Below, piece by piece: positions 39,062-39,959 of a stretch of DNA of 40,530 nt (position 1 is the first letter of the stretch; every line of letters starts with the position of its first letter). A program made the position numbers and the translations under genes. Source of the stretch: a virus. The DNA lies in IMG/VR virus record IMGVR_UViG_3300044959_000025, positions 1 through 40,530 of that record; one strand, 5' to 3'. The notes below the pieces were generated by a model. That model did not search any database. It saw only the letters and a list, made by a program, of their open reading frames with translations, and was not told the origin of the DNA.

Positions 39062-39090
39062 GTTGTGCTCCTATACTGCAGCAGTGAGGA

Positions 39091-39144
39091 GTGTGTGTGT
39101 GTGTGTGTGTGTGTGTGTGTGTGTGTGTGTGTGTGTGTGTGTGT
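39091..39144. repeat. (GT)27 dinucleotide microsatellite (= (AC)27 in the leftward transcript)
   Basis: Counted directly. It is flanked on both sides by the 10-mer gtgaggagtg (39084-39093 and 39151-39160). Confidence 0.95.
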
Positions 39145-39160
39145 TGTACTGTGAGGAGTG

Positions 39161-39204
39161 TTGTGTTGTGTTGTGTTGTGTTGTGTTGTGTTGTGTTGTG
39201 TTGT
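39161..39204. repeat. (TTGTG)8 pentanucleotide microsatellite plus a partial unit (= (CACAA)n in the leftward transcript)
   Basis: Counted directly. Confidence 0.95.
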
Positions 39205-39234
39205 TATATTATATACTACACACAACACACTAAA

Positions 39235-39245
39235 CCCCCCCCCCC
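39235..39245. repeat. C11 homopolymer (G11 in the leftward transcript)
   Basis: Counted directly. It lies about 15-25 nt downstream of the predicted leftward transcription start. Confidence 0.95.
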
Positions 39246-39267
39246 TTGTGTGTGTTGTGTTATTATT

Positions 39268-39296
39268 TACATACCCCGTTCACGACCCCTTGTCAA
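39268..39296 (-). promoter_or_regulatory. Candidate leftward (late-operon) promoter PL: TTGACA-N17-TATGTA on the minus strand
   Basis: The reverse complement of 39291-39296 is TTGACA. A 17-nt spacer follows. The reverse complement of 39268-39273 is TATGTA. Same TATGTN -10 style as P1 and P6. Confidence 0.45.
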
Positions 39297-39307
39297 GGGG
39301 GTATAAT
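39279..39307 (+). promoter_or_regulatory. Candidate rightward promoter P5: TTCACG-N17-TATAAT
   Basis: Perfect TATAAT at 39302-39307. The -35 is TTCACG at 39279-39284. It physically overlaps PL. The spacer contains the palindrome cccctt-gtc-aagggg. Confidence 0.4.
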
Positions 39308-39313
39308 TGCTAA

Positions 39314-39334
39314 GGGCGGCCCGAAGGGACGCCC
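39314..39334 (+). other. GC-rich hairpin at the predicted 5' end of the P5 transcript
   Basis: gggcg-g-ccc-gaa-ggg-a-cgccc. It starts about 7 nt after the -10. Confidence 0.5.
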
Positions 39335-39367
39335 CCCAGCAGATTCCCTCTACTCCCGCAAATAACT

Positions 39368-39522
39368 CCACACAACAACACACAACAACAACAACAACAC
39401 ACAACAACACACAACAACAACAACAACAACAACAACAACAACAACAACACCACACTACCACAACACACTACCACAACACTACAACACACCAATGCACACA
39501 CTACCACAACACACAACAACAC
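39368..39522 (+). repeat. 155-nt A/C-only tract (1 G and 5 T by my count) including (CAA)12 at 39412-39447
   Basis: Read base by base. Units include CACAACAA, CAA, CCACAACAC and CTACCACAAC. Confidence 0.95.
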
Positions 39523-39854
39523 GGCGAGGCGTGACACGTTGCGGTGGGCATGTGTGTGTGAGTGGTGGTGTGGGGATGAAAGAGTGGACGAGAGGATGAA
39601 AGAGGGGGGTGGTTGATATGCGCCGCGGCTGGCACGCCTCACAAAACACCCCCCTTTTGGGATTCAGGTCAAGGGGGGGGATATGTTCCTAGCCTAGGAC
39701 TATATTCCTATGTGCGGTTGGCTGCATGGTGAGTGTGGGAGTCGAGGGCGTTGGGCGTATTGTGCGGTGCAACATGATTTTGTGAATGGTGGGGTTGGGC
39801 GCGTTTGCTGTCGTAGAGCATCCATCTACCATCGCGCATGGCAAGCGCTTGCTA

Positions 39855-39869
39855 TGCACAACATGTGCA
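39855..39869. promoter_or_regulatory. Palindrome copy 4: TGCACA-ACA-TGTGCA
   Basis: Same GCACAACATGTGC core as at 1421-1437. It lies about 16 nt upstream of the -35 of P6. Confidence 0.55.
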
Positions 39870-39884
39870 GCGCTGACGTGACGC

Positions 39885-39913
39885 TTGACGTTATGCGCGT
39901 GCCATGCTATGTG
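39885..39913 (+). promoter_or_regulatory. Promoter P6 (TTGACG-N17-TATGTG), paralog of P1
   Basis: 11 of 17 spacer positions are identical to P1 by my alignment, and P6 shares with P1 the 11-mer ccatgctatgt that spans the spacer end and the -10. About 45 nt upstream of the 39960 gene. Confidence 0.5.
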
Positions 39914-39959
39914 TTGCGTAGCCTGGCAATGATGCTAGGTGAGTGAAAGGGGAAAGGGA

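Follow-up and report, generated by a model that had tools for sequence, protein, structure and literature searches.

CA-rich, G-poor tracts beside a divergent promoter-like core in the control region of an uncultivated podovirus-like phage

RNA segments that are rich in C and A and poor in G are known from several described systems, and the control region considered here, a gene-free stretch of the phage record IMGVR_UViG_3300044959_000025 that lies between its early and late genes, can be set against each of them. Rho enters RNA at untranslated, unstructured, C-rich and G-poor sequence, and the rut sequences of lambda are CA-rich. The Omega leader of tobacco mosaic virus, a eukaryotic RNA virus, is a G-poor, unstructured leader of 68 nt with a poly(CAA) core, located directly before an open reading frame (ORF). 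At the level of DNA, the non-coding left end of T7-type podoviruses, with its primary origin, is a gene-free segment of several hundred bp before the early genes that has host-type promoters, short repeats and an AT-rich block. In bacteria, (CA)n tails at the 5' end raise translation from a sequestered ribosome binding site (RBS) by means of ribosome standby, an effect that saturates at 16-18 nt (PMC5934652). ACA motifs and CA-rich elements upstream of the RBS likewise enhance translation (PMC3879156). Indeed, engineered CA-repeat leaders boost translation strongly, for reasons that the authors call puzzling. Lastly, the prophage-encoded anti-small-RNA AgvB titrates GcvB, and the distal face of Hfq binds A-R-N repeats (PMC4104026), so that both Hfq binding of such repeats and phage anti-small-RNAs that mimic CA-rich GcvB targets are documented (PMC4104026, PMC3879156).

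How does the control region of this phage compare? The window, that is, the whole 40,530-nt stretch that was analysed, comes from a podovirus-like phage of ~40.4 kb that has no close cultured relative; its relatives are labelled A, B or with L-numbers. Plus-strand genes run from 39960 through the junction of the circular assembly to ~15547, and minus-strand genes run from 39061 down to 15516. The control region is the single point at which the early (plus) and late (minus) operons diverge and, at ~900 bp, far exceeds any other gene-free stretch noted in the genome. The account that we tentatively prefer is that of a divergent core from which transcripts with slippage-expanded, single-stranded, G-depleted leaders would leave in both directions, with the late leader acting as a ribosome standby site and the early leader as an entry site for Rho or another RNA-binding protein.

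A conserved promoter-like core between repeat tracts

The features that bear on this account are, by position in the window:

39059-39072, minus strand: start codon (39061 to 39059), CACAAC spacer and AGGAG RBS (39072 to 39068) of the first late gene, which encodes 135 aa
39084-39093, minus strand: copy 1 of the motif CACUCCUCAC, which resembles an anti-Shine-Dalgarno sequence; copy 2 at 39151-39160
39091-39144: (GT)27, which reads (CA)27 in late-sense (minus-strand) RNA
39161-39200: (TTGTG)8, which reads (CACAA)8 in late-sense (minus-strand) RNA
39204-39216: AT-only block TTATATTATATAC, 13 bp
39218-39260, minus strand: inverted repeat ACACACAACACAC / GTGTGTGTTGTGT with the C-run in its loop, the predicted 5'-terminal hairpin of the leftward RNA
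39235-39245: C11
39296 to 39291 and 39273 to 39268, minus strand: late-sense sigma-70-like promoter-like site, TTGACA, 17 nt, TATGTA
39279-39284 and 39302-39307, plus strand: early-sense promoter-like site, TTCACG, 17 nt, TATAAT
39314-39334, plus strand: GC-rich hairpin GGGCGGCCC-GAA-GGGACGCCC, which begins at the predicted rightward start site
39335-39366, plus strand: conserved C-rich segment CCCAGCAGATTCCCTCTACTCCCGCAAATAAC
39361-39523, plus strand: A/C tract
39412-39447, plus strand: (CAA)12, within the A/C tract

An exact repeat search recovered (GT)27, (TTGTG)8, C11, (CAA)12 and the near-pure A/C tract just where a sequence-only reading of this stretch had placed them. The lengths and purity of the tracts are far beyond chance. 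Nine simple repeats of at least 14 nt were observed genome-wide, against 0.145 expected from first-order Markov simulations. Runs of A and C alone reach 88 nt (39368-39455), and the two longest runs of G and T alone have 57 and 48 nt; in 200 Markov simulations, neither kind of run exceeded 30 nt. From CGCAAATAAC to AGGCGTG (~39367-39526), there are only 4 G and 6 T in 160 nt. Tracts of the same types stand in the same place in four other IMG/VR contigs, which come from three other IMG samples, and are thus not an assembly artefact of this record. Three of the four end inside a tract. The tracts therefore break short-read assemblies, and care is needed with completeness calls and end predictions. 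A rarity scan for (GT)20 and (CAA)10 yielded at least 118-119 stretches, a lower bound, many of them in giant-virus contigs.

Protein coding was considered for the region and rejected. No ORF in 39062-39959 is conserved in frame, since those present are either low-complexity translations of the repeats or are broken in relatives by indels of 1, 5 and 7 nt, which are not multiples of 3. A small ORF at 39613-39732 was rejected for the same kind of reason, its frames differing among the window, A and L019. Hence the region is, as had been proposed, a non-coding one between divergent operons, with no credible ORF and with the gene layout diverging there. A search of the region for tRNA genes found none, and Rfam returned nothing for it at gathering thresholds, with only chance-level matches at E up to 5.

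The composition of the plus strand switches at a conserved core. From left to right, the profile passes from G/T-rich sequence to an A/C-rich block at 39350-39500 and then to a second G/T-rich block at 39524-39800; the simpler scheme of a G/T half and an A/C half meeting at promoters had omitted this last block, but it had correctly placed the switch at two overlapping sites. The switch sits in the core at 39262-39372, where the promoter-like sites are arranged back-to-back and the early-sense site overlaps both the late promoter and a palindrome, CCCCTTGTCAAGGGG (39286-39300). Two related genomes span the whole region: A (3300045911_000012) and B (3300045911_000005, a complete circle). In both, the core is ~92% identical to that of the window, against a divergence at fourfold-degenerate sites of 33-58% in the flanking genes (late gene, 33-34%; 330-aa early gene, 56-58%). 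The flanks of the core have been rebuilt in A and B and the core kept. The late -35 hexamer is retained in both genomes, and the early-sense -10 reads TATAGT in both. Judging from its hexamers and spacing, the late promoter looks constitutive though it heads the structural operon. We infer that both core promoters fire.

What would the resulting transcripts look like? All of the tracts lie 3' of the predicted start sites and outside ORFs. Leftward RNA is predicted to begin with a hairpin of -15.2 kcal/mol (z = -3.0) that is kept in B with C12 and absent in A. Rightward RNA is predicted to begin with a hairpin of -14.1 kcal/mol that is nearly invariant in A and B. Both tracts fold to a minimum free energy (MFE) of 0 kcal/mol. 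RNA leaving the core in either direction would thus be CA-rich, G-poor and structure-free after its 5' hairpin, and the earlier proposal that both divergent RNAs are CA-rich and G-poor is borne out by these predictions. A giant cruciform or hairpin between the left and right tracts was also considered and rejected; the arms are 70-85% complementary, as composition alone predicts.

Repeats are also found elsewhere in the genome. A (CAGG)7-8 microsatellite occupies 1280-1313, with (CAGG)7 at 1280-1307, in an early intergenic region just 5' of a promoter-like TTGACA-17-TATATA (1369-1397), and a shorter copy of it lies at 2799-2821. Late ORFs of 1395 aa and 419 aa contain (CAC)17, (GGTGTA)4, GTTGGT-type and (GCT)9-13 repeats (18992-19158 and 19720-19760). 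These in-ORF repeats would encode low-complexity linkers, and the genome appears to tolerate slippage in general.

Conservation and change among relatives

The close relatives differ in repeat units and copy number. The first late protein of A and B is 87% identical to that of the window. The number of (GT) copies is 27 in the window, 27 in L001, at least 35 in L002 (where the contig ends in the tract) and 17 in B; A has none and carries a different insert of ~90 nt in that place. The (TTGTG) repeat is degenerate in A and B, and the L001 contig ends in its (TTGTG) tract. The AT block measures 13 bp in the window and ~40 bp in A, and in B it consists of TATAGTATATAC-type repeats over ~100 bp; the C-run is 11 nt in the window and 12 nt in B. 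The right tract keeps a length of 143-160 nt and a G content of 2.5-4.9% in the window, A and B, with different units in each: (CAA)12 in the window, mixed non-repeat sequence in A and (CTACAACACA)7 in B. Composition that is kept while units change would be moderate evidence for function. It is no more than moderate because slippage also preserves composition, and because the right tract in A, at 13% G+T, is near the ~15-18% roughly estimated for neutral decay at the fourfold-site divergence of the late gene. An alignment across related phages had been suggested as a check of CA-richness against changing units; it gives the expected pattern in the close relatives, but distant relatives lack the mirror symmetry.

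Homologues of the first late protein with 30-52% identity were found at 12 further loci. A metagenome scan with the late-protein alignment returned just four distant short contigs. In every relative whose gene context was read, the gene for this protein is the first of the late operon; these include L018-L020 and, by sequence, L040. The proteins of L018-L020 are 48-52% identical to that of the window, and their gene-free gap measures 750-1244 bp. The more distant MW202489 has the same layout with a gap of only ~330 bp. A late-sense TTGACA lies less than 400 nt from the late gene in 14 of 15 related loci, seven of which have a TAnnnT -10 at 16-18 nt. Hence, a host-type late promoter with a long leader appears to be a family trait. 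In L018, L019 and L020, at ~1-60 nt 5' of the late gene, there is also a strong rightward site (TTGACA-17-TATATA or TACAAT) within 25 nt of the late RBS, facing the late-sense TTGACA at a distance of 100-200 nt; the window has the back-to-back arrangement instead. The face-to-face arrangement suggests transcriptional interference. A small late-operon gene of L018 (6988-7230) has a precomputed Pfam match to Acb2_Tad1_hairpin, an anti-defence sponge fold.

G depletion in the early sense is found well beyond the close relatives. L040, where the tract is (AC)31, L038 and L023 each have 100-nt windows in which G makes up no more than 4% (p<0.001 by shuffling), and weaker tracts are present in L020, L032 and L024. 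The three strong tracts each follow a GC hairpin. GC hairpins with different stems precede the G-poor tract in L040, L023, L038, L019, L020 and L035, with GAA triloops in L040, L035 and L023 and hairpins of the GCGAAGC type in L040 and L035. In L038, the module of hairpin and G-poor tract follows the stop codon of a small ORF. The tracts of L038 and L023 are non-repetitive A/C/T sequence, G-poor but not ARN- or CACAAC-rich, and slippage alone therefore cannot explain them. Early-sense G depletion after a hairpin thus points to selection. The A/C tract of the window can be read as the microsatellite form of an older, selected G-poor segment, and the left tracts as a later addition in this lineage. 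The claim that the mirror symmetry reflects selection and not slippage noise consequently survives in part: the right G-depleted tract recurs in L040, L038 and L023, but the full symmetry is limited to the sub-lineage of the window and is absent in L018-L020. Late leaders outside this lineage contain 15-36% G, or 17-28% for those of at least 45 nt.

The rest of the genome provides context. Bases 1-127 are identical to 40404-40530 (exactly 127 bp); this overlap is presumably a k-mer assembler leftover on a circular contig and provides no evidence for a physical terminal repeat. The plus-strand products include a Dda-type helicase, a deoxynucleoside monophosphate kinase, a family A DNA polymerase, a primase and a Sak4-like protein. 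The polymerase (11631-14072) has an N-terminal domain of the uracil-DNA-glycosylase superfamily followed by 3'-5' exonuclease and polymerase domains. The minus-strand products include the small and large terminase subunits, the portal, the major head protein and tail proteins. GenBank megablast found no phage that is close at the DNA level, and hence no annotated homologue of the control region; GenBank protein matches are distant (at most 28% identical). General scans recognised no regulator, antiterminator or initiator among the early proteins, and no N-, Q- or Psu-like protein. A 26-kb contig, L277 (CAZEZI010000018.1), in a metagenome-assembled genome of an uncultured member of the Thioalkalispiraceae (Gammaproteobacteria) encodes a head protein 69% identical to that of the window. 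L277 does not reach the control region, and its binning is the sole, weak hint of a host.

Candidate functions and rival explanations

What might the tracts do? On the late side, RNA read from its 5' end would present (CACAA)8, CACUCCUCAC copy 2, (CA)27, CACUCCUCAC copy 1 and the RBS, in that order. The (CA)27, whose end lies 19 nt 5' of the RBS of the first late gene, is unpaired in the MFE structure and sits directly 5' of a stem in which the CUCCU of CACUCCUCAC is predicted to pair with the AGGAG of the RBS, giving a single strand longer than the 16-18 nt on which a standby tail depends. The stem is weak (-8.3 kcal/mol, z = -0.6); L001, L002 and B retain CACUCCUCAC, and A lacks it. The late leader also contains 52 ACA motifs. 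The late leader is thus probably a ribosome standby site or an ACA-type enhancer platform.

Long (GT/CA) runs upstream of ORFs were also surveyed in IMG/VR. An apparent orientation bias of 13 versus 2 was rejected as an artefact of GTG starts inside the repeats. With these starts masked, runs of at least 18 units split 16 versus 11 within 40 nt of the ORF, which is not significant in what is a crude test. A sense-strand (CA) run of at least 28 units does occur ~38 nt 5' of an AAAGGAG RBS and ATG in IMGVR_UViG_3300045988_055576 (42 kb; L067 11206-11245 / L103 1-57). This phage is only remotely related (the large terminase is ~21% identical), and its assembly also joins in the (CA) repeat.

On the early side, further features lie downstream of the core:

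39523-39622, plus strand: conserved G-rich block with GGATGAAAGAG twice (39574-39584, 39594-39604) and GGTTGATATGCG
39649-39680, strand undefined: conserved element CCCCCC-TTTTGG-N-GGGGGGGG
39885-39913, plus strand: promoter-like site TTGACG, 17 nt, TATGTG, 47 nt 5' of the first early ATG and conserved in A
39960-40412, plus strand: first early gene, encoding 134 aa; strong intrinsic terminator at 40385-40403, then a T-run

The A/C tract is not the leader or enhancer of the first early gene, because it ends 437 nt before that ORF, because the gene has its own promoter-like site and terminator, and because B has no such gene and A has an unrelated small ORF in its place. The proposal that CA leaders are translation enhancers therefore fits the late side, where PMC5934652 and PMC3879156 provide precedents, but not the early side. 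The further claim that many Shine-Dalgarno-to-start spacers in the genome resemble CACAAC was overstated: only ~8 of ~60 candidate ORF starts have CA-type spacers. The 39885-39913 site is of the same type as TTGACA-17-TATGTT at 40424-40452, and the first early protein, for which no family match was found, would be encoded by a self-contained cassette with moron-like behaviour.

The early tract has instead the composition of a Rho site, which calls for an untranslated stretch of RNA, 70-80 nt or longer, that is unstructured, rich in C and poor in G. It contains 41% C and 2.5% G, with 78-nt windows devoid of G and C/(G+1) values of up to 32. YC dinucleotides number 16 in the 189 nt of the right side, and the left side has 6. 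The best match to the boxA sequence CGCTCTTA on the transcribed plus strand has 3 mismatches, and a lambda-type nut site was thus not found. The tract includes (AAC)12, a perfect A-R-N run of 12 triplets that is predicted to be unpaired, as the distal face of Hfq would require, and the right segment has 46 ACA motifs. The CCCAGCAGATTCCCTCTACTCCCGCAAATAAC segment is predicted to pair with the downstream G-rich block in the window, A and B, and the predicted fold also joins part of that block to the far end of the A/C tract (z = -2.97), so that the tract would lie unpaired inside a closed structure in all three. For the long-range helix that closes the tract, no common structure was found in L038, L023, L024 and L020. 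A leftward GU-rich small RNA from the right half was rejected; its fold is no better than that of shuffles (z = -1.0), and no minus-strand promoter was seen beside the tract.

Two other kinds of element are found on this side. The one at 39649-39680 has the family-wide form C5-7 / TTTTGG(A/G)TT / 10-20 nt / G5-8, with a short CA-rich stretch 5' of it, and occurs in 9 of 14 related loci, among which the identity of the flanking protein falls as low as 32%; carriers include L018, L019, L020, L023, L031, L033, A and B. Its minus strand reads as a GC stem followed by a U/G-rich tail and was flagged as terminator-like. In addition, a palindrome with the core GCACAAC(A/T)TGTGC occurs in early intergenic regions at 1414-1438, 1840-1860, 2695-2715 and 39853-39871. 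The flanking stem bases of the copies differ (GTGCACA, GAGCACA, GGCTGCACA), and two of them are followed by a 58-nt repeat that runs up to an RBS (1851-1908 and 2716-2773; 81% identity). The palindrome may be an RNA processing or regulatory hairpin.

The account that we prefer joins these parts as follows. Two overlapping sigma-70-type promoters in the core, one each way, would produce transcripts with hairpins at or near their predicted starts. The first 150-200 nt of each transcript would be low-complexity, nearly G-free and non-folding, and replication slippage would have expanded these leader sequences into long, length-variable microsatellites. On the late side, the leader from (CACAA)8 to (CA)27, ending ~20 nt before the RBS, would hold ribosomes in standby or provide ACA-type enhancement. 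On the early side, the A/C tract would be the part of a non-coding leader at which single-stranded RNA is entered, the leading candidate being a rut-like site at which Rho loads and ends or attenuates transcription leaving the core. The anatomy, the conservation and the lack of predicted structure are observed; the cellular machine that binds the tracts is what we infer.

Several points weigh against this account. First, the tracts are several times longer than the length at which the standby effect saturates, the hairpin that would sequester the RBS is weak and absent in A, and A has no (CA)n beside the RBS at all. Second, the CA-rich late leader is limited to one sub-lineage, the late leaders of other relatives are not G-poor, and across IMG/VR, long (GT/CA)n runs 5' of ORFs show no significant bias to the CA strand. 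Third, no significant G-depleted tract was found by shuffling in L018, L019, L031, L034 and L035, and that of L033 is borderline (p = 0.05). Fourth, the YC dinucleotides preferred by the Rho primary site are sparse in A/C-only sequence. Fifth, the rightward -35 is weak (TTCACG in the window, TCCACG and CCCACG in A and B), and the use of either promoter is read from sequence. Lastly, mechanisms of the Rho, Hfq or S1 type are assumed for a host known only by the weak hint of the Thioalkalispiraceae.

The first alternative is neutral slippage, in which the tracts are dispensable spacers beside an essential core, where low-complexity seeds expanded and composition copied itself. As a complete explanation we consider this doubtful. 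It would account well for the other long repeats of the genome ((CAGG)7, and the ACC, GGTGTA and GCT repeats in ORFs at 18996-19746), for the copy numbers that vary among close relatives ((GT) at 27, 27, at least 35, 17 and 0; C11 and C12; the AT block from 13 to ~100 bp), for the absence of the left tracts from A and from distant relatives, for tracts that are far longer than any known functional need, and for the near-neutral G+T content of the right tract in A. Against it stand the non-repetitive G-depleted tracts of L038 and L023, which match that of the window in strand and relative position, the independent (AC)31 in L040, the right-tract length held at 143-160 nt in three genomes, and the mirror polarity around the promoters, which is exact in the window and in B.

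Could both tracts instead be Rho-dependent attenuators that time expression? Near-consensus host promoters would then fire at once, and Rho would terminate transcription until relieved by a phage factor or by ribosome coupling. This we regard as unlikely. The leaders are untranslated and structure-free, with 33-41% C and 2.5-13% G overall; the best 78-nt windows have no G, with C/(G+1) reaching 32 on the right and 19 on the left. A late promoter that looks constitutive yet heads the structural operon would also make sense under attenuation, and the order of hairpin and G-poor tract recurs, in L038 after a small-ORF stop as in an operon-end Rho terminator. On the other hand, there is no boxA-like motif on the transcribed strand, no N-, Q- or Psu-like protein was recognised in the general scans, YC dinucleotides are sparse, the host is known by a weak hint and its Rho is assumed, and the late leaders of other family members are not G-poor.

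To a similar degree, it is improbable that the region acts primarily as DNA, in the form of a replication origin or a packaging or genome-end region with an AT unwinding block, GAA-loop hairpins in single-stranded DNA, flanking repeat arrays and Z-DNA at (GT)27. Such a role would suit the longest gene-free stretch noted, from which all genes point away, making transcription co-directional with bidirectional replication. It would also suit the AT-only block of variable length beside a promoter (13 bp in the window, ~100 bp in B), two copies of GGATGAAAGAG and, in B, two of GGGAGTGGTTGA as short direct repeats, the family-wide element at 39649-39680, the GCGAAGC-type hairpins in L040 and L035, and a phage that encodes a family A DNA polymerase, a primase and a Dda-type helicase. 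However, no initiator protein or iteron family was recognised, the AT block of the window is short, the 127-bp end overlap is presumably an assembly overlap and maps no genome end, and MW202489 has the same layout with a much smaller gap. Z-DNA had been proposed for the alternating tract. By the requirement for at least ~12 bp of alternating purine and pyrimidine, (GT)27 could qualify, but (CAA)n and (TTGTG)n fall outside it, and Z-DNA would not explain relatives such as A that have no (GT)n.

A broader version of our preferred account would apply to the family as a whole. Early transcripts of this uncultivated podovirus family would start with a conserved GC hairpin and 100-160 nt of nearly G-free RNA that captures Rho, Hfq or S1, microsatellite expansion would be an evolvable dial of the number of binding units, and a mirrored copy would have been recruited to the late leader. 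This is a long shot.

Least probable of all is that the rightward RNA is a decoy or sponge, with a 5' hairpin and ~95 nt of exposed (AAC)n/CACAAC that titrate Hfq or a GcvB-type GU-rich seed: the perfect A-R-N run, the 46 ACA motifs, the unpaired tract inside a closed structure in three genomes and the documented precedents described above would allow it, and against it stand the lack of an Rfam family match and of an intrinsic terminator to define a discrete small RNA, the tracts of L023 and L038, which are not ARN- or CACAAC-rich, and a host known by a weak hint, GcvB not being known outside some Gammaproteobacteria. The suggestion of an RNA-binding-protein decoy thus gained no specific support, though it has the (AAC)12 run in its favour.

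If the preferred account is correct, the late leader would be a natural and extreme CA-repeat leader, and the variation in length among strains would provide a ready-made allele series. The G-depleted tract that follows a hairpin in distant relatives suggests that the early region of this phage family, none of whose members is in culture, opens with a non-coding element so far unrecognised.

Comparison with described systems

The control region shares some properties with each of the systems described at the outset and differs from every one of them. First, as in the T7 left end, gene-free DNA of several hundred bp lies ahead of the early genes, with host-type promoters, repeats and an AT block. 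Unlike in T7, the flanking operons point away from each other and the repeats are true microsatellites; in addition, the analysis found no phage RNA polymerase and mapped no terminal repeat. Second, as in the contingency loci that underlie bacterial phase variation, long perfect repeats vary in copy number between close genomes. However, the repeats of this phage lie outside ORFs and promoter spacers and so cannot switch a reading frame or the spacing between -35 and -10. Third, AgvB and other RNA sponges (PMC4104026) resemble the predicted RNA in that phage RNA exposes CA-rich or A-R-N sequence able to bind Hfq or GU-rich seeds; AgvB has a single mimic, whereas the RNA considered here has many tandem sites and no defined small-RNA ends or terminator. 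Fourth, TMV Omega is likewise a G-poor viral leader with CAA repeats, but in the phage the (CAA)12 sits 512 nt from the next ORF.

The two closest parallels correspond to the two sides of the core. On the early side, rut sites and lambda nutR-tR1 also consist of untranslated, unstructured, C-rich and G-poor RNA of at least 80 nt, located after a promoter together with a small GC hairpin. The differences from nutR-tR1 are that the phage has no boxA and no N-like protein, that its hairpin has a GAA triloop and not the pentaloop of boxB, and that YC dinucleotides are sparse. On the late side, CA standby tails and ACA enhancers (Sterk et al. 2018, PMC5934652; Yang et al. 2014, PMC3879156) share with the phage a single-stranded CA repeat just 5' of an RBS that could be held in a small stem, and the phage has in addition a dense set of ACA motifs and a CACAAC spacer between the RBS and the AUG. 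It departs from the standby tails in the length of its tracts (54 and 40 nt versus 16-18 nt), in the weakness of the stem, in the restriction to one sub-lineage and in having a right tract with no ORF to serve.

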